Of a DNA stretch of 64,000 nucleotides, positions 2,038 to 33,140 are shown one piece after another (the stretch's first letter is position 1; each line of letters starts with the position of its first letter). Both the position numbers and the translations under genes were made by a program. Source of the DNA: an uncultured Actinomycetota bacterium (GTDB lineage Bacteria > Actinomycetota > Actinomycetes > Mycobacteriales > Pseudonocardiaceae); the NCBI GenBank assembly GCA_963730945.1, contig CAVSTV010000006.1, positions 25,612 through 89,611 on the forward strand, in the 5' to 3' direction. The notes below the pieces were generated by a model. The model saw only the letters and a program-made list of their open reading frames with translations, searched no databases and was not told the origin of the DNA.

Positions 2038-2353
2038 GCTGCTCATCCTCGCCGCGATCGGGCTGGGGACCTACGCGATGCGCGCGGTGTTCCTGGTGAC
2101 CGCCCGCTCGGCGCCACCCGCCGGGGTGGCGCGGCTGCTGCCGCATCTCGGGCCCGCGGTGCTGGCCGCCATCACGCTGCCGACCCTGCTCGCCCCGCGG
2201 GGTGCGGTCGCCGCGGCCGAGACGCTGCCCGCCCTGGGCGCCGCGGCCGTGACCTGGCTGCTGTGGCGGCGCACCGGACGACTGCCGGCGGCGCTGTTCG
2301 GCGGCCTGGGCGTCTGGTGGCTCGCGGGCGCGATGCTGACCGCCGCCACCTGA
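2030..2353 (+). CDS. azlD: AzlD-domain membrane protein
   Basis: GLGTYAMRAVFL, LLPHLGPAVLAAI motifs; GTG start overlaps the azlC stop. Confidence 0.8.
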   Translation: MRELLILAAIGLGTYAMRAVFLVTARSAPPAGVARLLPHLGPAVLAAITLPTLLAPRGAVAAAETLPALGAAAVTWLLWRRTGRLPAALFGGLGVWWLAGAMLTAAT

Positions 2354-2404
2354 CCGGCACCCACGGCCCGGCCACCACGCCCGGGCGAATCCGCCGGGGC
2401 GGGG

Positions 2405-4793
2405 TCAGCCGATGCGTCGAGGGACGAGCGCGGTGACCGCCGCGCTCTCCCGGTGCGCGGTGTTGTGACGCTCCAGCCACTGCGCGAAGTCCGCGGCCGC
2501 GGTCGGCCGCAGGTGCAGGTAGCCCTGCGCCGAGTCGGCGCCGACCTCACGCAGGAACTGCTGCTGGTCGACGCGCTCGACGCCCTCCGCCACGACCTGC
2601 AGCCCGAGCCGGCCGGCCAGCCGCACGATCGCCTCCACGATGGTCTTGTCGGCGATGTGCGACGGCCCCGCCGACAGGAACGATTTGTCGATCTTGACGA
2701 TGGTCAGCGGCACGAGGCGCAGGGTGCTCAGCGCCGAGTAGCCGGTGCCGAAATCGTCGACGGCGATCGCGACCTCCAGGGCGGCGATAGCCTGCAGCGC
2801 GTGCCGGACCGCGGCCGAGTCCAGCACCATCCCCTCGGTGATCTCCACGACCAGCCGGCTCGGCTCCATCGCGAAATCCGCGACGCAGGAGCGCACTATG
2901 TCGATGAAGCCCGGGTCGGTCAGCTGCGCGGCCGACACGTTGACGTGCACCGCGAGCCGACCGGACGGGCCGCACCAGGCCGCGGCGTCGGAGCAGGCCC
3001 GGCGCAGCACCAGCTCGCCGATGTCGACGATCGCGCCGGTGCGCTCTGCGGTCGGCACGAACTCCGCGGGATGCAGCAACCCCCGGGTCGGGTGAAGCCA
3101 CCGCACCAGGGCCTCGACGGCCACGCACCGGCCGTCCTGCACCGACACGATGGGCTGGTAGTGCACCACGAGTTGATCGGCGGCGGCCGCCGCTGCGAGC
3201 TCGGACTCGAACACGGCCCGCCCGTCCTCCCGCAGCAGGCTGGGATCGAACACCTGCACCCGGTTCTTGCCCTTGGCCTTCGCCGCGTACATGGCGATGT
3301 CGGCGCGCTGCACGAGCTGCTCGCCGCCGACATCACCGGGTCCGGCGAAGGCCAGGCCCACGCTCGCACCCACCTGCGCCAGCCGCCCGCGCAGCGTCAC
3401 CGGCGCCGCGATGCGCTCGACGAGGCGCTGCCCGATGAGGACGGCGTCGGAGGCGGCGTCGGCCAGCAGCACCGCGAACTCGTCACCCCCGAGCCGCGCG
3501 CACAGGTCATCGGGCCGGACACCGGCCCGCAGCCGGGCGGCCACGGTGCGCAGCAGCTCATCGCCCGCGGAATGGCCCAGGTCGTCGTTCACGATCTTGA
3601 AGTCGTCCAGGTCCAGGAACAGCAGCGCGACGTGCCGGGTCCGCGACGGCGAGGGCGGCCCCCAGCGCGGCGGTGAACGCGGCCCGGTTGACCAGGCCGG
3701 TCAACGGGTCCGCGCTGGCCTGGGTGGCCAGGTCCTGATGGGCCGTGCTGTTGCGCAACGCCAACGCCACCTCGTTGGTCATCGAGCCGACCGACACCAC
3801 CGCTTCGGGGGGTACCCCGCTCGCGGCGCCGAGCAGGATCCAGCTGCCGGCATCGTGGGCGAGCGGCAAGCCCAGCCAGGTGCCGTCGAGACCGGTGGCC
3901 GCGACCAGCGGACGGCTGTCCGGCAGCGGCTGTACACCGCCACCGTGGTCCGCGGGCAGGACCGAGGGCGGCACCGTGCGCAGAGCCGACGGCGGCCCGC
4001 CGGCCTGGTAGCAGACCGTCGTACCGCGATCGGTCTGCATGACCACCAGCATCCGCAACCCGGGGGTCGCGGCACAGATCGCGTCGCAACACTCGTCGGC
4101 CAGCAGCCGGATCTGCGCCCGGCCGGTCACCCCGATGAGTCGGCTGCTCAGCTGCAACAGCGCGGCGTCGCGCTCCCGGGACTGCTCCTGGGCGTGCAGG
4201 CTGCGCGCCAGGTACCGGGCCACCCCGACAGTCAGGAACATGATCGGGACCGCGCCGAGGATGCCCAGGACCTCGGTCATCGGCGACGCGTCGGGACGTC
4301 CCGGCAGCGTCGGCCACACCGAGAGGGCCGTCACCACCGCCGCCGCCACGAACCCCGTGTGCAGCACCGCCCCACGGGTGGAGCCGTAGAGCGCGCGCAG
4401 CCACAGGGAGGCGAACACGTAGGTGAAGATGCTCGCCGGGTGGCTCGCGGCCACCGACGTCGCCAGGACCAGCACCGCCTCCATCCCGCCGAGCAGCACC
4501 GGGGCGCGGCCGGACAGGTAGCGGTAGCCCCACACCGCGACCAACCCGGGGTAGGCGACGGCGTCGATCAGGAACGGCAGCGACCCCGACGTCGCGATCA
4601 GGCCGGGCAGCGACAGCAGCAGCGACACCAACGCGAGCACGGTGAACAACCATCGCGTCCGCGCCACCAGGCCGTCCGGCCGGCGCAGCCACGCCCATCG
4701 CGCCCTCGGCTCCGCCCGCGCCCCCACGTCCACCGCCACCGCCACCGCCACCGTCCCGAACTCGATCCGGATCAGGCGGAGCTCAGGGTTCAC
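2405..4793 (-). pseudogene. Membrane-anchored GGDEF-EAL diguanylate cyclase/phosphodiesterase, split by a frameshift near 3635 (start uncertain)
   Basis: ORF 3558-4937 has TM helices, a GAF-like region and DPLTGLVNR; the reading continues in another frame as HVALLFLDLDDFKIVNDDLGH...GGDEF...EAL-type (VEALVRW, DDFGTGYS) in ORF 2405-3592. Confidence 0.85.
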
Positions 4794-4944
4794 CGGAGCA
4801 ATGACCTGTTGGGCCTGGCAGATGAGCCTAACTTTGCCAAGGCGCTCGGCGAACACTGTGCGCCCTTCACGATCGGGCGGCCAATCGTGGCGGCGACGAG
4901 GGGTCCAGGCCGGCCGACCAGCGACCGACCTGGACACTTGACGG

Positions 4945-5484
<540 letters not shown>

Positions 5485-5703
5485 AATAGCCGGCAGGTCC
5501 TCCTACCTACGGATCTGCGGTCGGGGATGCCCGGATAGGTAGCACTCACGGATGTCGGCTCCGGACGGCGCGGCCACCATCGATCCCGTCAACAACCCGT
5601 CGCACCTCCTCCCGACCTCGAGAGGCAGCCCCATGTCCAGCTCCACCCTGCGCCGCCGGACGGCCACCTTCGTCCTGATCATGGCCGCCGGCCTCGGCGG
5701 CGC

Positions 5704-6426
5704 ATGATGCGCGCTTTCCTGGCCGCCCGCGACGCCGCCGCGCTGGCCGCCCTGCCCGCTCCGCCGCGGTTCTACCCCGGCGCCGTCCCCCGCCGGCCCG
5801 GCGAGCCGGCGCCGGACCTTTCCGACTACCGCATCGTGCACCGGGCCATGACCGTGGATCTCGACCGGCTCGCCGTCGCCGCCGCCGAGCTCGTCGACCG
5901 GCCCGATCCCGCCCGGCTGGCCGCGCTGCGCCACTACCTGCACGCCGTGTCCGGGGAGATCGAGAGCCACCACCAGGTCGAGGACGAGCACATCTGGCCG
6001 TTGCTGGCCGCCGTGGCCGCCGACCCGGCGGGGCTGGCGGGGCTGAGCGACGACCACGAGCGGCTCGACCCGCTGCTGCGCCGCGCCCGCGAGCTCACCG
6101 GCGCCGAGCGCGCCACCTGGGAGCTCGCCACGGTGCTGCGCGAGGCGTCCGACCTGCTCACCCGGCACGTCGTCGACAAGGAGCGGGTGGTCTTCGAGCT
6201 CATCGCCGACCACGTGCGCGTCGCGGACTACCAGCGGCTGCAGCGCAGCTTCCGGGAGAACCTGACGCCGCGGCTGCTGCCCTTCCTCATGCCCTGGACC
6301 GTGCGGCACGCCACCGCCGAGGAGCGGCCGCACCTGCTCGCGTCGGCCGGGGCGCCGATGCGCCTGCTGCTGCGCCTGGTCGAGGGCCGCTTCCGCGCCC
6401 GCGAGGCGCTGCTGTTCGGTGCTTGA
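5704..6426 (+). CDS. Hemerythrin/HHE cation-binding domain protein
   Basis: H-R-A-M, HHQVEDEHIWP, DDHERL, RHVVDKE iron-ligand pattern (the last HxxxE appears as HVVDKE). Confidence 0.8.
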   Translation: MMRAFLAARDAAALAALPAPPRFYPGAVPRRPGEPAPDLSDYRIVHRAMTVDLDRLAVAAAELVDRPDPARLAALRHYLHAVSGEIESHHQVEDEHIWPLLAAVAADPAGLAGLSDDHERLDPLLRRARELTGAERATWELATVLREASDLLTRHVVDKERVVFELIADHVRVADYQRLQRSFRENLTPRLLPFLMPWTVRHATAEERPHLLASAGAPMRLLLRLVEGRFRAREALLFGA

Positions 6427-6536
6427 TCAGCGCCTGCGGGCCGGAGCTTCACATGGAGCGTGTTGCCGAATCCTCAGCAACCGTCAGGGCACGCCCGAGC
6501 CGCCATCGGGCACCCCGGACGGTTCGGCGACGTCAA

Positions 6537-6596
6537 GATCACCGCCTGCGGTCGCTGAGCTGCACGGATGAAGCTAATCGACCGCAGACGCCGATC
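6537..6596. repeat. Imperfect GATC-ended palindrome between convergent genes (REP-like or bidirectional terminator)
   Basis: CTGCGGTCG 6546-6554 pairs with CGACCGCAG 6579-6587; inner AGCT/AGCT; outer GATC ends. Confidence 0.5.
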
Positions 6597-6604
6597 ATGA
6601 CTGA

Positions 6605-9226
6605 TCATGGCGGCGGCGCCGGGTCCATCCGGCGGGCGGCCGCGGCGGCGTCGCGGCGGGACCGGACGCCGAGCTTGTCGAAGATGGCCGCCACGTGGTG
6701 GTCCACGGTCCGCACCGACAGCACCAGCCGGGCCGCGATCTCCGGGTTGGTCATGCCCTCGGCGAGCAGGGCCAGCACGTTGAGCTGGCGCTCGGTCAAC
6801 CCGGCCGGGTTGGACCGGGTGCTCGCAGCCGGGCCGCGTGGCACCCGGGTGACCCCGAGCGCGGCGAGGCGCTCGCGCACCACCCTCGATGCCGCCACCG
6901 CGCCGAGCTCATCGAGGGTGCGCAGCGCCGCCACCGTCGGCTCGACCTCGCCCGATTCGGACAGCTCCAGCGCCTGCTCGTAGGGGTCACCGATCCGCGC
7001 CCACGCCGCCGCGGCGGCCTCCCAGTCCCCGTCCAGCCCGGCGGCCCAGGGCTGCGGGCAGCCCGGGAACGACCCGGCGTCGAGCCCGGCCCGGGCCAGG
7101 TAGCGCAGCAGCTCCCCGATCACCGGTGCCGCACCCGCCCGGTCCCGGCGGCTCAGCAGCACCTCGGCGACCGGCCGGGCGCGGTCGGGTTGCCCGGTCA
7201 GCCAGGCCCACTCGACGATCGCGGTCCCGGCGAACGCCAGCCCGAACAGCGAACGCTGCTCGCTCGCCCGTCGCCACGCCTCCGCCAGCAGCGGCCCGGC
7301 CTCGGGGCGGCCGCGGCGGGCGAGCAGCCGCGCGTAGGGCGGGACGCTGTAGACGTAGAGCATGCCGACCTCGTCGGTCGCGGCGACCAGGTCGCGCAGC
7401 GCGTCCTCGGCCGGCCGCCAGTCGCCGCGGCGGATCTGCAGCAGGCAGCGGTGCACGTCGAGGTTGTAGGCGTGCGACCAGAAGCCGCGGACCCGGGTGA
7501 ACTCCAGCCCGGCCTCGACGACCTCGGCCAGCTCGTCGAGCTGCCCGAACCGGTAGAGGTGCTCGACGAGGTTGGTGTAGCCGCGCGCGGTGGCCTCGTC
7601 CAGGTCGGCGTCGAGCGCGAGCGCGAGGCTCTCCCGCAGCGGCACCAGCCCGGCCGGCCCCTCCAGGTCGGCGCGGGCCACGCCCAGGTAGTTCAGGCAC
7701 ATCGCCACCAGGTCCAGCCGGCCGGCCGGGCCGGCCAGCGCCCGGGCCCGGTCCAGCAGCGCCACCGCGGCCTCCGACCGTTCGGTGAGCGCGAGGATCG
7801 CCCCCCGCGAGCTGAGCGCGTGGGCCAGCGCGGCCGGCGGCGCGCCCGCCGACTCCAGCACGGCCACCGCCCGCTCGACCGCCTGCTCGGACCGGTCGGT
7901 GTCGCCGGCCATGTAGAGGTGCCGCGACAGCCGCACCAGGGCCTCGCCGAGCGCGCCGCGGACGTCGAGCTGCTCGTAGCGGCGCACCGCCTGCTCGGCG
8001 AAACCGACCGCGTCGTGGAACCGGTTGGCGTTGTAGAGCTCCCACGCGTAGTCGTCGAGCAGCCGGGCGTGCTCGGCCGGCGCCAGCTGGTCCGCGGTGC
8101 GCAGCGCGGCCTCGAAGTGGGCCAGCGCCTGGCGGTGCGAGCCCAGCCGGGCGGCTTCCCGGCCCGCGGCGGGGGCGAACGCGGCGACGGTCTCCCGGTC
8201 GTCGGCCTCCAACGCGTGGTGCACCAGCCGGTCGAGGTGCCGGTCCGGCTGGGCCAGCAACGCCCGCACGACCGCGCGGTTGAGCAGCCGCCGCCGGATC
8301 GCCGGCATGCTGGTCTCGATGGCCCGCCGCGCCAGCTCGTGCCGGAACGCCAACCCGGCGCCGCGCACCTGCAGCATGCCGCGTTCCTCGGCCTCGTCCA
8401 GCACCTCCAAGCCGGCGCCCAGCAGCGTCTCGGCCAGCTCGAAGCCCACCTGGGTGGGCACCACGGCCAGCTGTTCCAGGGCGTCCCGGCAGCCGGGGGT
8501 GAGCTGGCCGAGGCGGGCCACCACGGCGTCGGCGACGGTGCGCGGCACCCCGCCGGCCGGGGCGGCCAGCGCCTCGGTGACGAAGAACGGGTTGCCCCCG
8601 GTGAGCGCGTGCAGGGCCGCGTCGTCGCGGTCCGCCCCGTTCGGTCCGGCCCCCCGGACGAGCGCGCCGACCCCCGCCGCGGACAGCGGCTCCAGCGGCA
8701 ACCGGTGCACCGGGATGCCGGCGAGCTCCCCGAGCAGCGCCCGCAGCGGATGCGCAGGGCCGACCTCGTCGACGCGGAAGGTCAGCACCAGCACCCCGGG
8801 TACGTCGGTGATCCGGCGCGCGAGATAGCGCACGACGTCCAGGGTGGCGTCGTCCACCCAGTGCACGTCCTCCACCACCAGCACGGTGGCCCGGGCCCGC
8901 CCGAGCTCGGCGACCGACGCCGCGAAGACGGGTTCGACGGCGGTCTCGTCGAGCGCCCGCTCCAGCGGACCACCGGTCCCGTTCACCGCGTCGCGCAGCG
9001 GGCCGAGCGGCCGCCGGGTGTGCAGGTCGTCGCAGGCCCCGACCAGGACCCGCACGCTGCGGTCCACGGCAGCGAGGAACGCCCGGACCAGCGTGCTCTT
9101 GCCGATCCCGGCCTCACCGCTGACCAGCACCACCGACCCGTGCCCGGCCGCGGCGGCCGCGACGGCGTCCAGCAGCGCCTCGACCTGGCCGTCGCGTTCC
9201 AGCACGGCCCCGGCCACGGGCGCCAT
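6605..9226 (-). CDS. Large ATP-binding LuxR-family (LAL-type) transcriptional regulator
   Basis: Walker A GEAGIGKS, Walker B VVEDVHW, GGNPFFVTE, TPR-like middle, C-terminal LuxR HTH (LTERQLNVL...SVRTVDHHV). Confidence 0.9.
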   Translation of the reverse strand: MAPVAGAVLERDGQVEALLDAVAAAAAGHGSVVLVSGEAGIGKSTLVRAFLAAVDRSVRVLVGACDDLHTRRPLGPLRDAVNGTGGPLERALDETAVEPVFAASVAELGRARATVLVVEDVHWVDDATLDVVRYLARRITDVPGVLVLTFRVDEVGPAHPLRALLGELAGIPVHRLPLEPLSAAGVGALVRGAGPNGADRDDAALHALTGGNPFFVTEALAAPAGGVPRTVADAVVARLGQLTPGCRDALEQLAVVPTQVGFELAETLLGAGLEVLDEAEERGMLQVRGAGLAFRHELARRAIETSMPAIRRRLLNRAVVRALLAQPDRHLDRLVHHALEADDRETVAAFAPAAGREAARLGSHRQALAHFEAALRTADQLAPAEHARLLDDYAWELYNANRFHDAVGFAEQAVRRYEQLDVRGALGEALVRLSRHLYMAGDTDRSEQAVERAVAVLESAGAPPAALAHALSSRGAILALTERSEAAVALLDRARALAGPAGRLDLVAMCLNYLGVARADLEGPAGLVPLRESLALALDADLDEATARGYTNLVEHLYRFGQLDELAEVVEAGLEFTRVRGFWSHAYNLDVHRCLLQIRRGDWRPAEDALRDLVAATDEVGMLYVYSVPPYARLLARRGRPEAGPLLAEAWRRASEQRSLFGLAFAGTAIVEWAWLTGQPDRARPVAEVLLSRRDRAGAAPVIGELLRYLARAGLDAGSFPGCPQPWAAGLDGDWEAAAAAWARIGDPYEQALELSESGEVEPTVAALRTLDELGAVAASRVVRERLAALGVTRVPRGPAASTRSNPAGLTERQLNVLALLAEGMTNPEIAARLVLSVRTVDHHVAAIFDKLGVRSRRDAAAAARRMDPAPPP

Positions 9227-27544: not shown

Positions 27545-28930
27545 ATGAGCACGCGGATGCGGGCGCAGGAGGTCGTGGAGCGCACGCTGGCGGCCGCGGC
27601 GGCGCTGCACGGCTGCGCGGTGCTGGTCAGCGAGTCGAGCGAGGCCGTGCTGCGCTGGGCGAACTCGACGATGACCACCAACGGGCACAGCACCTCGAGC
27701 TCGGTCACGGTGATCGCCTTCGTGGCCCTCGACGGCGGCACGGCGGCCGGGGTGGCCGCCAGCAGCGCGGCGGTCACCGACCCCGGCCAGCTGGAGGTGC
27801 TGGTGCGCCGCGCCGAGGCCGCGGCCCGTGATGCCGGGCCGGCCGAGGACGCGATGCCGCTGCCGGAGCCGACCGAGGCCGACCCGAGCTGGGACGACGA
27901 CGCCGGCGCCACCTCGATCGGCGTCTTCTCGGCGTTCGTCGAAGGGCTGGCCGAGGTGCTCGCCGGACCGCAGCGGCAGTACGGCTTCGCCACGCACAGC
28001 GTCACGACCAGCTGGCTCGGCACCTCCGCCGGGGTGCGCCGGCGTTGGGTGCAGCCGACCGGTTCGGTGGAACTCAACGCGAAGACCGCCGATCTGAGCA
28101 GCTCCGCGTGGGCCGGGGTGTCCACCATGGACTTCACCGACGTCGATGTGGTGGCGCTCGCGGCCTCAGCGGGGGCCCGGTTGGCCTGGGGGCAGCGCAA
28201 GATCGAGCTCCCGGCCGGGCGCTACGAGACGCTGCTACCCACCTCGGCCGTCGCCGATCTGATGCTCTTCCTGGCGTGGTCGATGGACGGCCGCCCGGCA
28301 CACGAGGGCCGCAGCGCGCTCGCCGGCCCGGACGGCCCGCGCACCGGCGAACGGCTCACCGAGCTACCACTCACGCTGACCTGCGATCCGGGCGCGCCGG
28401 GCCTGGAGTACCAGCCGTTCGTCTCGACCGCGTGGTCCGGCGACGGGATCAGCATCTTCGACAACGGAGCCCCGAGCCGCCGCGTGGACTGGGTGCGCGC
28501 CGGCGTGGTCAACGAGCTGGGCTACTCCCGGGCCGAGGCCGCCGAGTTCGGCACCACGTTCACCCCGATGGGCGGGAACCTGCTGCTCACCGGCGGTTCC
28601 CAGGCGAGCCTCGAGGATCTGGTCGGGCGCACCGAACGCGGCCTGCTGCTGACCTGCCTCTGGTACGTGCGCGAGGTCGACCCGGCCACCCTGCTGCTGA
28701 CCGGGCTGACCCGGGACGGGGTGTACCTCGTGGAGAAGGGCGAGGTCGTCGCCGAGGTGGACCACAACTTCCGCTTCAACTACTCCCCGCTCGACGTGCT
28801 GCGCCGCACCACCGAGGTCGGCGCCACCCGGCGCACCCTGCCTCGGGAGATGGACGGCTACACGCGGGCGGCGATGCCCCCGATGCGGGTGCCGGAGTTC
28901 AACATGTCGTCAGTGTCGCTGGGCCGTTAG
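27545..28930 (+). CDS. PmbA/TldE-like partner of TldD
   Basis: LRWANSTMTTNG, LPAGRYETLLP, GLLLTCLWYVREVDP, LLTGLTRDGVYLVE. Confidence 0.85.
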   Translation: MSTRMRAQEVVERTLAAAAALHGCAVLVSESSEAVLRWANSTMTTNGHSTSSSVTVIAFVALDGGTAAGVAASSAAVTDPGQLEVLVRRAEAAARDAGPAEDAMPLPEPTEADPSWDDDAGATSIGVFSAFVEGLAEVLAGPQRQYGFATHSVTTSWLGTSAGVRRRWVQPTGSVELNAKTADLSSSAWAGVSTMDFTDVDVVALAASAGARLAWGQRKIELPAGRYETLLPTSAVADLMLFLAWSMDGRPAHEGRSALAGPDGPRTGERLTELPLTLTCDPGAPGLEYQPFVSTAWSGDGISIFDNGAPSRRVDWVRAGVVNELGYSRAEAAEFGTTFTPMGGNLLLTGGSQASLEDLVGRTERGLLLTCLWYVREVDPATLLLTGLTRDGVYLVEKGEVVAEVDHNFRFNYSPLDVLRRTTEVGATRRTLPREMDGYTRAAMPPMRVPEFNMSSVSLGR

Positions 28931-29270
28931 CCCGCCGTTAGCCCTCGTCAGCCAGGTCGCCAGGGCCGTTGGGTTAGCGTTAGCCCGCCTTTGCGCGCGG
29001 CTTCGGTGATCGTTCCGAGCGGCACATGGTGGATCCGAGCAGGTCGTTCCTGTGACTCCCGCAATGATCAGTGCCGCCTGACGAGCCCGGCTGTCCTCGA
29101 CCCGGCATGGACACCCCGGTGTGGGCCGGGCCCACTCCCCCGCGACCGACACCGGGTCGCGTGGACTGCCGGGCTGTTGACTGTTGTTGCTCATGCTGGC
29201 GTCACTCCAGATGCGCGCGTCGTAGCGAGCGGCATCGTCACTGTGGCGGCCGGATCGTCCCGATGTCGCG

Positions 29271-29477
29271 GCGCGGGTGTCCGTCGTTGTCGGCGCCGGC
29301 GCACAGGTGCTGCCGCGCCGCTCCCGCTCCTCGGCGCCGAGGAGCCTGCGGTGCGGGTCGGCTTGCACTCGTCTGCCCTGGTCCATCTGAGCAGGACTCA
29401 TGTTCACGTTGCGTCGCTCACGTGCACTCGCGATCGTCTGCACGGCCAGTGACGGGACGTGTGCATGTCGAACGCCG
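29271..29477 (+). repeat. Left arm of a ~208-bp inverted repeat flanking the DUF222/HNH gene
   Basis: Reverse complement of 31511-31719; manual alignment gives 7 substitutions and 2 single-base indels. Confidence 0.95.
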
Positions 29478-29538
29478 TCCTAACAGCGGTGTCGATTCTT
29501 GCAGTCGCGCGCCGCGGCGGTTCGGTTCGCGGTCGTTG

Positions 29539-31400
29539 TCAGAAGGGTGGGTCGTCGGGGATCGGGTGGCCCGGCGGTGCTGGTTCGGGTGGGGCGGGTG
29601 GTGGTTCGGGTTCGGGGTCGTCGGGGAAGTAGTCGCGGTAGTCGTGGGGTCGGCTGGTGTGGCGGTGCCCGGTGGGGGTGATCCAGATCAGGGTGCCGTC
29701 GGGGTGGGAGATGACGTGCCAGCCGGGTTGGTCTTTCAGCGCGTGGTGTTGGGGGCAGAGGCCGTGCAGGTTGGCCTCGTTGGTGTCGCCGTCTTGGGCC
29801 CAGGGTTGGAGGTGGTCGAGGTCGCAGTCGATGGCGCGGCGGTTGCAGATGGGGAATCGGCAGGTCACGTCCCGGGCTTTGACGAAGTCGTGGAGGGCGG
29901 CGGGTGGTCGGTAGGTGCGGCGGCCGTGGTCGAGCAGGGCACCGCTGACCGGGTCGGTGATCAGGCGTTTCCAGACGGCGTCGGTGGCGGTGTGGCGGGC
30001 GAGGTCGGCGGGGATGGGGCCGTAGCCGACGAGTTCGGCGGGTAGCTGGTGGGTGCCGGTGAGGGTGTCGAGTCCGATGACGATCTGCACCAGTGGCTTC
30101 CCACCACCACTGCCGCTGTTGTTGCTGCCGGCGGCGCCGCAGGTGCAGCCGGTGCGACGAGCGGGGTTGGTGCGGGGTGGCCACCCGGCCGGCCGGCGGT
30201 CCGGTCGGCGGGCTCCTCGGGTGTCGCCGCCGGTGCCGGTGTCGGTGCCGGTGTCGGTGTCGGTGTCGGTGGCCGCGGTCGGCGTTGTGGCCGCACCGGT
30301 GTCATCGGTGTGTACACCGGCCATATCGCCGGTGCCGGTGTCGCTGTCGGTCGCGGTGTCGCTGTCGGTCGCGAACTCGTCATCGGTCGCGGGCTCGTCA
30401 TCGGTCGCGGGCTCGTCATCGGTCGCGGGCTCGTCATCGGTCGCGGTGCTCGTCATCGGTCGTGGTGTTGTCGGTGGCGCTGTCCGCGGTGTCGTCGTCG
30501 GTGGCGGTGTCGTCGTAGTGGGTGTGGGTGAGGCGGCCGGTGATGAGGTCGACGAGTAGGTCGGCGCGGCGGGCGTCCATAGGCCGGGGGTCGTCGGGGC
30601 CAAGGCTGCGGGCCAGGCGGGTCAGGGTGTGCCAGCCGGTGGCGGCGTCGGTGGCCGAGAGCAGCGCCCACAGGCTGGACATGCCGTCCTCGTCGTGGTG
30701 CACCGCGACCCGGCGTTCGCGGTGCGCGGCGCCGTGGCGCCGGTTGGCGCCGTCGGGGTCCACGCGCAGCACGGCACGGCGTACCGCGGCCCGGAACTGG
30801 GTCCAGGTTTGTGTCCCGGCGGCGGGCAGCACCCGGTCCTGGACCTGGCGGGCCTGCTCGGGGCTCAGCACGGTGAGCAGTTCGCACAGCACCCGGGCTT
30901 GGCCGGCGTCGATGGTGCCGGCCTGCCACGCGGCCAGGGTGTCGGGCAGGGTGCGGGTCAGGATGATCGACTGGGCCAGTTCGGTGCTGGCCGCGGGGCG
31001 GCTGATCCCGAGGGCGAGGCCGAGTTCATCGGGGGCCCACCGCGAGGCCACGCTGGGGCGGGGGCAGGATGACGGCTTGGGGTTCGTCGCCGGGGCGGCG
31101 GCGGGCGAACTCGGCGATCAGGCGGGTGCGGCGGGCTTGGGCCCAGCGGGTGAGGTGGTCGAACGCGACGATGGTGTCCAGCAGCGCGGTGTCGGTGAGC
31201 AGCGCCGGTTCGGCGGCGGCGTGCTCGGCGTCGAGGGCGAGCTCGCCGTCGGGCAGGCACTCGGCCAGGCCGTAGGTGGGGGCGTCGTCGTCGGGTTGGG
31301 AGTAGACGCCGGGGGCGGTGGGGATGTAGTCGTGGTTGCGGGCGGCGCGTTCGGTGGGGGTGATCGCGAACACCTCAGTCGGATCCGCGGTGTCGAACAT
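29539..31400 (-). pseudogene. DUF222 (13E12-repeat family) HNH endonuclease, with two apparent frameshifts (~31060 and 30447)
   Basis: Three consecutive ORF pieces: MFDTAD...RWAQARRTRLIAEFARRR; SRWAPDELGLALGIS...RRADLLVDL; AELVGYGPIPA...RDVTCRFPIC...CDLDH...N..NLHGLCPQHHALK. Confidence 0.9.
30367..30460 (-). repeat. 18-bp tandem repeat (TDDEPA) x5 inside the DUF222 linker; the first unit on the coding strand has 19 bp and shifts the frame
   Basis: ACCGATGACGAGCCCGCG units; the aberrant unit is ACCGATGACGAGCACCGCG. Confidence 0.9.
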
Positions 31401-31408
31401 GTGTTCGA
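31393..31408. promoter_or_regulatory. LexA (SOS) box overlapping the DUF222 start codon, with an adjacent TATACT -10 element
   Basis: TCGAAC-ATGT-GTTCGA matches the actinobacterial consensus TCGAAC-N4-GTTCGA; minus-strand TATACT at 31413-31408. Confidence 0.85.
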
Positions 31409-31510
31409 GTATAGCGGCCAGAACTGCGGTTATCAAGCCGAATGACGGGCTCCTTGACGGGATCCTTCGACCTCGTACGACGCGCCCGCCGCACGCTGCC
31501 CGGTGACGCC

Positions 31511-31719
31511 CGGCGTTCGACATGCACACGCCCCGTCACTGGCCGTGCAGACGATCGCGAGTGCACGCGAGCGACTCCAACCTGAACATGAGTCCTGCTC
31601 AGATGGACCAGGACCGACGAGGGCAAGCCGACCCGCACCGCAGGCTCCTCGGCGCCGAGGAGCGGGAGCGGCGCGGCAGCACCTCGTGCGCCGGCGCCGA
31701 CAACGACGGACACCCGCGC
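31511..31719 (-). repeat. Right arm of the ~208-bp inverted repeat
   Basis: Reverse complement of 29271-29477; contains the same 20-bp palindrome GCTCCTCGGCGCCGAGGAGC (31644-31663). Confidence 0.95.
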
Positions 31720-31934
31720 GCGCCGCGCAATCGTGAGACCGCCCGGTCGCCCGAAGGTGCGACGGTGATTCGGCCTGCCGTGGGCGAACCGCTCATTGAC
31801 CGGGCTGAGCGACTCGCCGCGCTACGGCGTGGCTTCCGACCCTGGACGAGTCCGATGCCGTTCACTGTGGGCACGCGGGGGTCGGTGAGTTCCCGGTCGG
31901 CCGCCGCGGTGCTGGTGAGCGAGAGGGGCCGGCC

Positions 31935-32231
31935 GTGCCGTACGAGGTCGTAAGCGCGTACACGCTGCTCGTCGGCGACGTCCATTCATCGCCCACGGTC
32001 AGCGTGCACACCAAGGCCGACGACGCCTGGCGGGCGCTGGACACCGAGGTCCGCAGCCGCTGCGGGATGCGACCCCGGCCGCGCCGCGAGATGGACGCCG
32101 ACGCCGCTACCCGGCTGGCCAACGCGTGGCGTGCCGGCGACCCGGAATGCCGCTACTGGAACCTCACCGTGCACCGGTTGCCGGTCCCGGTGCCGGTGAT
32201 CGCCCAGCTGCCGCTGGCCCTCGCCCGCTGA
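31935..32231 (+). CDS. Hypothetical protein
   Basis: 98 aa, GAGAGG RBS, high-GC3 codon usage. Confidence 0.55.
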   Translation: MPYEVVSAYTLLVGDVHSSPTVSVHTKADDAWRALDTEVRSRCGMRPRPRREMDADAATRLANAWRAGDPECRYWNLTVHRLPVPVPVIAQLPLALAR

Positions 32232-32258
32232 CGTCCGCTCACGCCGGACCCCGGCATC

Positions 32259-33140
32259 ATGGTGCCGGTGTTCCCGCTGCCCGCCCGGCTCGCCGCGAGC
32301 GCGGCCGTCGATCCGGAACGCCGGGACTGGCTCGCCGGACTGCCCGACGCCGTGCACGGCCTGGCCGCGCGCTGGGCGTTGACCCTCGGCCCGCCGTTCC
32401 AGCCCGGCGGTGAGGTGTCCTGGGTGGCGCCGGCCCGGGACCCGGCCGGGCGCGATCTCGTACTCAAGATCGGCTGGCGACATGTCGACGCCGCGCAGGA
32501 GGCGGCCGGGCTGCGCGCCTGGTCCGAGCGTGGCGCGGTGCGGTTGTACGCGGCGCACGACGAGGGCGCCCACTGCGGGCTGCTGCTCGAACGCTGCCGG
32601 CCGGGCACCACGCTGGCGATGGGCCGATCCGGGTCCGAGCAGGACGAGGTGGTGGCCGTGCTGCTGCGCCGGCTGTGGCACGAACCCCCACCCGGACACC
32701 CGTTCCGATCGCTGGTGCAGCTCTGCGACGAATGGGCCGCGGAGTTCGAGATCGACTACGCCCGCCAGCCGAACGCCCTCGATCCCGGCATCGCCCGGGC
32801 CGGGATGGAGCTGTTCCGCGGCCTGCCCCGCGAGCACCGACCCGACCTGCTGCTCACCACCGACCTGCACGCGGGCAACGTGCTCGCCGCGCACCGCGAA
32901 CCGTGGCTGGTGATCGACCCGAAACCGCACGTCGGGGACCCGACCTACGACGTGCTGCAACACCTGCTCAACTGTCCCGAGCGGCTGACCGCCGATCCCG
33001 GCGGCCTCGCCGACCGGCTCTCGGCGCTGCTCGATCTCGACGCGCACCGGGTCCGGCGCTGGCTGTTCGCCCGCTGCGTGCAGGAATGCGTGCAGCAGCC
33101 CTGGCTGCGACCGGTGGCGAGCGCGATCGCCCCGACCTGA
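32259..33140 (+). CDS. Aminoglycoside/hydroxyurea resistance kinase family (APH(6)-like) phosphotransferase
   Basis: VLKIG, LLLERCRPG, DLHAGNVL Brenner motif, VIDPKP..GDP.YD. Confidence 0.85.
   Translation: MVPVFPLPARLAASAAVDPERRDWLAGLPDAVHGLAARWALTLGPPFQPGGEVSWVAPARDPAGRDLVLKIGWRHVDAAQEAAGLRAWSERGAVRLYAAHDEGAHCGLLLERCRPGTTLAMGRSGSEQDEVVAVLLRRLWHEPPPGHPFRSLVQLCDEWAAEFEIDYARQPNALDPGIARAGMELFRGLPREHRPDLLLTTDLHAGNVLAAHREPWLVIDPKPHVGDPTYDVLQHLLNCPERLTADPGGLADRLSALLDLDAHRVRRWLFARCVQECVQQPWLRPVASAIAPT

Follow-up and report, generated by a model that had tools for sequence, protein, structure and literature searches.

The window, by which we mean the whole stretch of 64,000 nucleotides analysed, contains a lineage-specific insertion of about 3 kb (~28939-31916). 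Synteny with other species of the genus ends at 28926-28938 and resumes at 31917-31924; pmbA lies on one side of the insertion and a small ORF preceding an APH-like kinase gene on the other. The insertion holds a DUF222-HNH gene between two inverted arms, whose coordinates are given in Table 1 with those of the other features.

Table 1. Features of the locus and of related units elsewhere in the genome.
Feature	Position	Strand	Basis or remark
Left copy of the ~355-nt MITE-like element, nearly full length	29170..29488	+	nhmmer, model 21-380, E = 4e-49
Left arm of the inverted repeat	29271..29477	+	~96% identical to right arm
Hairpin motif, left copy	29303..29378	+	covariance model R1, 85.7 bits, E = 1e-15
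Perfect 20-bp palindrome	29326..29345	.	window-specific hairpin tip
TGAG-CAGGA-CTCA and CGTGCA-N12-TGCACG stems	29388..29444	+	neither kept in the family
DUF222-HNH (13E12-type) gene unit	29537..31436	-	Pfam DUF222, HNH
Nuclease promoter and perfect LexA box	31393..31436	-	TTGATA, 17 nt, TATACT; LexA box TCGAACACATGTTCGA
Right copy of the element, truncated at both ends	31511..31736	-	nhmmer, model 125-371, E = 9e-36
Hairpin motif, right copy	31611..31686	-	R1, 81.9 bits; palindrome at 31644-31663
Other copy of the gene unit	C8 86074-88200		shares exactly promoter and CDS
Other copy of the gene unit	C9 319799-321829		shares exactly promoter and CDS
Other copy of the gene unit	C14 232999-234874		shares exactly promoter and CDS

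The enclosed gene runs on the minus strand from an ATG at 31400-31398 to a stop codon at 29539-29541, and two breaks interrupt its reading frame, near 31026-31051 and 30434-30603. PF02720 (DUF222) scores above its curated cut-off on two pieces of the gene (E = 3.6e-18 and 9.5e-07), while the match to PF01844 (HNH) is weak (16.8 bits, below the curated cut-off of 21.4; E = 0.0074). The order of the two domains, DUF222 then HNH, is that of the REP13E12 / DUF222-HNH family. Pfam finds only these two in the protein and no RuvC domain, and searches of the nuclease against PDB and NCBIfam returned no match. The LexA box abuts the -10 element TATACT and overlaps the ATG, which is leaderless; related genomes have the same layout of promoter, LexA box and start in their DUF222-HNH units. 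Inside the gene (30213-30520, minus strand), a long stretch of degenerate tandem repeats of 12 and 18 nt encodes an acidic, low-complexity linker rich in Thr, Asp and Pro (...ATDDEPATDDEP...) between the DUF222 and HNH parts, and its length varies among paralogues.

Few gene families of the actinobacteria are as expanded as the DUF222-HNH (13E12) genes, and we know of no explanation for their spread since they were described in the late 1990s. In M. tuberculosis these genes are induced by the SOS response and are located at inversion breakpoints. We counted 32 DUF222 matches in the genome of the window and 53 in that of a relative. The unit between the arms is one of four near-identical DUF222-HNH units in its genome, and the part common to them spans 29537-31414 only, that is, the promoter and the coding sequence to the stop codon. 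In the C8 and C14 copies the frame is open, over 831 and 690 aa respectively. None of the C8, C9 and C14 copies has arms or any flanking inverted repeats within 2.5 kb, and we therefore rejected the arms as ends of the gene unit. The gene resembles the REP13E12 / 13E12 genes of Mycobacterium tuberculosis in combining DUF222 with HNH, in being multi-copy and in carrying a LexA box at a leaderless start. LexA binding at 13E12 genes is known for M. tuberculosis only (PMC3381160).

The left arm is the reverse complement of 31511-31719, in three blocks of 100%, 96% and 97% identity; in a MAFFT alignment the arms differ by seven substitutions and two one-base indels. These are the only two occurrences of the arm sequence in the 6.24-Mb genome. 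An earlier note on this DNA, made from the letters alone, had described three substructures in each arm, and all three were found where it placed them: a perfect 20-bp palindrome (GCTCCTCGGCGCCGAGGAGC, starting at 29326 and 31644 and without a third copy in the genome), a TGAG-CAGGA-CTCA mini-hairpin (TGAGCAGGACTCA at 29388-29400, its complement at 31589-31601) and a CGTGCA-N12-TGCACG stem (29421-29444 and 31544-31567). The alignment also bears out its statement that the differences between the arms spare these motifs, since none of the nine falls inside them. Folding of the arm on the strand that runs from the outer end inwards gives -109.8 kcal/mol (z = -2.76), a value equalled by 1 of 200 shuffles; the opposite strand gives z = -1.89.

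The arms are sister copies of a dispersed MITE-like element

The motifs are real, although the arm is not the self-contained structured unit that had been proposed. We built an nhmmer profile from seven copies in other species, and the homology that it detects exceeds the inverted repeat on both sides of the gene (Table 1). The left copy begins with cTGTTGACTG at about 29166, ends in ...GCCGTCCTAACA at 29489 and extends ~100 nt past the inverted repeat; its homology to the copies in G152, G140, G133 and G150 covers 29228-29487. The complete element is ~355 nt long and reads TGTTGMCCG, hairpin, DnaA box, GCCGTCCAACA. It lies in an unrelated context in each of the seven other species.

The element is short (<600 bp) and non-coding. 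Its copies differ by indels of 1, 2 and 20 nt that do not keep a frame, in line with the earlier statement that no credible ORF is conserved in the arm. Both outward ORFs of the arm share a peptide-like stretch across the hairpin, yet the indels at the hairpin tip are not multiples of three and the frames vary by species, for which reasons we rejected a coding reading.

Perfect 6-bp repeats (CCTTTG, ATCTCG, CACGGA and CAGGCC) flank four of the four complete copies that lie outside the replication-origin region (G152, G140, G133b and G111), and this makes the element MITE-like. Like the MITEs mobilised by DDE transposases of the IS481/IS3 type, which have TG...CA ends, it is a small non-coding sequence dispersed among unrelated contexts; it has 5'-TGTTG...CAACA-3' termini and is bordered by 6-bp direct repeats. 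It differs from them in its low copy number (one or two per genome) and in its short terminal inverted repeat, which is perfect over 5 bp and beyond that matches at ~9-10 of 13 positions. Unlike MITEs, it also contains a conserved DnaA box and a covarying hairpin that is found in unrelated mobile-element contexts as well. We did not find an autonomous partner of the element; the rve-type and IS110 transposases near the G140 copy have other ends. No target-site duplication was seen at the two window copies or at the G150 copy in the replication-origin region.

Both window copies have lost 20 nt bearing the DnaA box GAGTTATCCACAG, which is present in all other copies. The CGTGCA/TGCACG stem exists only because of this loss. 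From their common derived deletion and their palindromic hairpin tip it follows that the two arms are sister copies. They are thus two oppositely oriented copies of a ~355-nt non-coding, MITE-like Pseudonocardia element, the left one nearly complete and the right one truncated, and they arose either by an inverted partial duplication or by gene conversion between two insertions. The suggestion that the repeat might be a non-autonomous element was therefore sound, though it applies differently: each arm on its own represents a dispersed element with TGTTG/CAACA ends, which elsewhere has 6-bp repeats at its borders.

Two further copies have unusual settings. The dnaA-dnaN intergenic region is the chromosomal replication-origin region, and in G150 (L106, contig C29) an element copy with a 137-nt insert lies at ~4460-4935 between dnaA (5117-6829, minus strand) and dnaN (2177-3448, minus strand). 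The DnaA box conserved throughout the element family is a perfect one (TTATCCACA). At L257 (G140:C19, 3190-3300), the first ~50 nt of the element are followed by an inverted version of the next conserved stretch, the one upstream of the hairpin, and the motif GTGACGATC is repeated several times nearby; a listing of the ORFs at this locus identified no transposase. L257 could represent an ancestral version of the element or a rearranged one.

A conserved hairpin is widespread in actinobacterial mobile DNA

The only evolutionarily conserved structure in the arm is an imperfect three-stem hairpin of ~50 nt, and the palindrome is its remodelled tip. The hairpin consists of a first stem, GCCG/CGGC; a U.G pair followed by a second stem, CCGN/N'CGG; an internal loop, TCCTC / CTGCGGT; and a variable tip stem closed by a YGGC-type loop. 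In other members of the family the tip stem has 5-7 covarying base pairs. The left window copy keeps the stems GCCG/CGGC and CCGC/GCGG and the unpaired TCCTC and CTGCGGT. Its tip has GAGGAG in place of the usual 3' half, and this pairs with the normally unpaired CTCCTC to give the perfect palindrome. Among the three substructures of the earlier note, the palindrome thus corresponds to a conserved structure, whereas the TGAG/CTCA and CGTGCA/TGCACG stems are specific to the window.

Covariation in the hairpin is strong. In 48 distinct copies, 94.9% of the cells are paired and 7 of the 14 pairs show compensatory changes; for the last pair of stem 2, C-G, G-C and U-A are all seen. The covariation score of 0.229 compares with at most 0.05 for slid controls and was reached by none of 500 shuffles. 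Among the matches listed, 83 model-aligned copies from many genera gave 96.9% paired cells, 180 cells with a compensatory change and a score of 0.415 (controls, at most 0.067); this alignment (A2) was fitted to the model and many of its sequences are related to each other, so that the independent compensatory events number far fewer than the cells, tens at most. The earlier note had proposed covariation as a check, and the outcome differs between its motifs: for hairpin 2 and both small stems, RNAalifold on nine copies gave -5.6 kcal/mol, a covariation term of +0.37 and a single compensatory pair, and we rejected them as conserved structures. In the 3' half, RNAalifold places a weak stem around the DnaA box that is conserved in sequence without covariation. 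The register suggested by single-sequence folding (GCCG at columns 12-15 etc.) was likewise rejected, as it shows far less covariation than the adopted one.

Wobble pairs did not assign the folding strand, because the two signals contradict each other. A near-invariant T.G (77 of 83 copies) favours the strand co-directional with the downstream genes, and the sporadic A.C mismatches (28, vs 11 G.T) point to the opposite strand. We found no Rfam family at E <= 1 in 28500-32500 on either strand (cmscan) and no match at gathering score in 18 hairpin loci of other genera. The hairpin is thus absent from Rfam and represents an undescribed structured motif of actinobacterial mobile DNA.

In Pseudonocardia, the hairpin is a marker of the 5' boundary of repeated DUF222-HNH units. 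Sequence matching arm positions ~33-108 is present in 28 of the 137 genomes of the genus, with 1 to 12 or more copies in each. In the genome of the window the covariance model finds only the two arms; in four further Pseudonocardia genomes, of 1 to 20 contigs each, it finds 6, 10, 2 and 2 copies. All 20 of these lie upstream of a Pfam DUF222 match on the same strand, at 215-475 nt in 16 cases and 1.1-2.3 kb in four. Since the four genomes hold 14-53 DUF222 genes each against these few hairpins, the hairpin is confined to one subfamily. Paralogous units within a genome are ~1.48 kb long and 87-93% identical; their 5' border falls at the hairpin (-100 to +8) and their 3' border exactly at the stop codon. 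The hairpin precedes the -10 element, LexA box and leaderless ATG by 45-210 nt. Our locus follows this common layout of the genus, its right-arm hairpin being on the strand of the nuclease promoter and ~190 nt upstream of it. The subfamily to which the window gene belongs is normally without a hairpin, and none was found near its C8, C9 and C14 copies. The papers that could be searched treat 13E12 genes as LexA-regulated and as recombination hot spots and describe no hairpin at the 5' edge of the unit; in this respect the Pseudonocardia units differ from 13E12 as described there. The hairpin at the edge of one large DUF222-HNH subfamily offers a concrete and cheap substrate for testing recognition by the nuclease.

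Beyond this genus the hairpin recurs widely as a module of mobile DNA in actinobacteria. When 185,579 species genomes were scanned for its exact pattern, it was found in at least 120 stretches, with Pseudonocardia, Nonomuraea, Streptosporangium, Micromonospora, Actinoplanes, Frankia, Kineococcus, Actinoallomurus and others among the matches listed. Only five of the 67 scorable hairpins among those listed have a DUF222 gene downstream, four of them in Pseudonocardia. As so few hairpins outside Pseudonocardia adjoin such a gene, the DUF222-HNH nuclease cannot be the universal partner. The recurrent neighbours in other genera are phage-type integrase genes, several of them truncated, that end 100-134 nt upstream of the hairpin; MobA/VirD2-type relaxase operons ~100 nt to 2 kb downstream; and IS elements. 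Among the matches listed, 4-5 of 80 loci of other genera have a MobA/VirD2-like relaxase gene downstream; the window has none. The hairpin thus occurs 5' of DUF222 genes, 5' of relaxase operons and 3' of integrase genes, and it is co-directional with the adjacent gene in every association recognised.

Several of these loci deserve a description of their own. In Micromonospora (L152, L168, L178), Actinoplanes (L165) and Kineococcus (L208), a relaxase operon lies ~100 nt to 2 kb downstream of the hairpin on the same strand, a position typical of an origin of transfer. In four metagenome-assembled genomes of Pseudonocardiaceae (L143, L199, L181, L212), different phage-type integrases break off ~120-134 nt upstream of the hairpin, at Pfam profile position ~140-145 of 172 and ahead of the catalytic tyrosine. 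Between the broken integrase and the hairpin lies a conserved flank with TTGCATC-N2-GATGCAA, and it looks as if the hairpin-bearing element targets or replaces integrase 3' ends.

Possible roles of the hairpin

We give about an even chance to the following reading as a whole: the arms are sister copies of a MITE-like element whose conserved hairpin acts as a DNA site for enzymes of mobile elements. A recognition site at the DNA level is the likeliest role of the hairpin, as we infer from its position upstream of the gene promoter and at unit borders, from its lack of a conserved promoter or T-tract terminator, and from its neighbourhood to nucleases, recombinases and relaxases. Conservation starts abruptly at the hairpin, so that no conserved promoter precedes it, and sequence upstream of it is not conserved between families. 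We found no sigma-70-like promoter in the arms, and no T-tract or terminator-like site in the arms or anywhere in 28900-32000; the hairpin is followed by a conserved CTTGCC and, unlike a Rho-independent terminator, has no T tract after its stem.

In such a scheme, the hairpin would extrude from duplex DNA or form on single-stranded DNA. Single-stranded DNA is abundant during the SOS response, and the promoter of the nuclease gene carries an SOS (LexA) box; the same response could thus induce the nuclease and supply the DNA on which the hairpin forms. The hairpin would serve DNA-processing enzymes of mobile elements, here the DUF222-HNH nuclease and elsewhere relaxases or recombinases, which might nick, recombine or prime at it, and the MITE carrying only the hairpin would be a non-autonomous vehicle of that site. 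The earlier proposal that the arm may be a substrate or recognition site of the HNH protein stays plausible, with indirect support from the strict linkage of hairpins to DUF222 genes in Pseudonocardia.

A bolder proposal makes the hairpin the cis-acting DNA site by which SOS-induced DUF222-HNH nucleases would copy both themselves and hairpin-only MITEs, without a DDE, HUH or tyrosine/serine recombinase. We hold it to be improbable; if true, it would account for the fuzzy border at the hairpin, the exact border at the stop codon and the recombination hot spots at 13E12 genes.

In form, the hairpin resembles the sites that function as folded single strands (integron attC, IS200/IS605 subterminal hairpins, oriT inverted repeats and single-strand origins), and it belongs to none of these classes. 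It shares with them the form of an imperfect hairpin in which the base and some unpaired or mismatched nucleotides are conserved and the tip varies, as well as a place at the border of a gene unit and a tie to SOS-controlled or DNA-processing enzymes. Its position ~100 nt upstream of MobA/VirD2-type relaxase operons in Micromonospora and Kineococcus recalls oriT. Unlike attC, it has no RYYYAAC/GTTRRRY boxes, its conserved ends being GCTGCCGCG ... CTTGCC, and the tyrosine recombinases near it are truncated phage-type integrases upstream of the hairpin and not an integron integrase. Unlike the hairpins of IS200/IS605, it has no Y1 transposase or TnpB beside it.

The hairpin, or the whole arm, could instead work as RNA, either as a cis element on read-through transcripts, insulating or terminating before the tightly repressed nuclease gene or stabilising 3' ends, or as an RNA partner to which the DUF222-HNH protein binds in the manner of omegaRNA. 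The strong covariation, the invariant unpaired nucleotides and the nearly invariant U.G would suit an RNA, as would the constant co-direction with the neighbouring gene and the fact that the arm strand reading towards the gene folds better than shuffles (z = -2.76). However, the leaderless promoter of the gene comes only after the hairpin, which is therefore not part of the nuclease mRNA, the sequence 5' of the hairpin varies between families, and the arms have neither a promoter-like site nor a T-tract terminator. The analogy with HEARO / the omegaRNA of IscB, which the earlier note had raised, holds in that a structured element lies upstream of, and on the same strand as, a gene for an HNH-domain protein. 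It fails in other respects. The window has no match to RF02033 or to any other Rfam family, and Rfam likewise gave none in the 18 further loci; the protein lacks RuvC and the other domains of IscB, which combines a split RuvC with HNH; and the element has no promoter of its own, sits upstream of that of the gene and is missing from most gene copies, three near-identical ones managing without an arm. We regard a role as RNA as unlikely, and an RNA partner of the HEARO/omegaRNA kind finds no support at this locus.

The locus could also be taken for a composite mobile or invertible module, with the 207-bp arms as terminal inverted repeats needed for movement or inversion and the DUF222-HNH gene as enzyme or cargo. 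A single gene enclosed by long, 96%-identical inverted repeats within a lineage-specific insertion has this appearance, and in M. tuberculosis 13E12 copies recombine with one another and so drive inversions (PMC13157036). Such a module is nevertheless very unlikely: the three other copies of the unit end at promoter and stop, the arm sequence recurs nowhere else in the genome, the left copy runs on past the inverted repeat, and in other species the arm family stands alone with its own ends and target duplications. The promoter, moreover, lies inside the segment flanked by the arms, so that inversion would not switch expression.

Alternatively, the hairpin may be a landing pad: DUF222-HNH units would recognise and cut pre-existing hairpins and insert at a set distance downstream, and the window would show an insertion beside a hairpin borne by the MITE. 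This would explain why a unit of a normally hairpin-free subfamily lies ~190 nt downstream of the right-arm hairpin, on the same strand and within the canonical range of spacing. It also agrees with the fuzzy 5' borders of the units, one of which falls within the 5' flank of the hairpin (L095), and with their exact 3' borders. Nonetheless, no unoccupied hairpin was found in the four further Pseudonocardia genomes, where all 20 have DUF222 downstream; the spacer from hairpin to promoter shows conservation among paralogues, as would be expected of a part of the unit; and the C8, C9 and C14 copies have no hairpin nearby. A landing pad is thus quite unlikely in our estimation.

To return to the reading of the hairpin as a DNA site, the copy in the window itself looks like a decayed relic, to judge from the frameshifted gene, the deletion of the DnaA box from both arms and the occlusion of the hairpin loop by the new palindrome. 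The window by itself carries a modest message, a pseudogene flanked by two copies of a small mobile element that have decayed, and it is the wider hairpin family that deserves follow-up.

Some arrangements in that family are of separate interest. Tandems of two or more hairpins, 210-215 nt apart, occur in three genera, Nonomuraea (L145), Streptosporangium (L203) and Pseudonocardia (L160/L035-L037, G013). The second copy of the tandem is of a variant type, with TGCTC / CTGCACT instead of TCCTC / CTGCGGT, a compensatory change within the 'internal loop'. In Pseudonocardia G013, a degenerate tandem array of ~110-nt repeats also lies upstream of the hairpin. The hairpin had no match in the phage collection and two in the plasmid collection, both of them uninformative. 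One of these loci (L258) is on the 92.5-kb plasmid pAmyja1 of Amycolatopsis japonica, where the hairpin at 5001-5063 falls inside a CDS annotated as 'hypothetical protein', a call that may be spurious, and is surrounded by a run of small co-directional genes.
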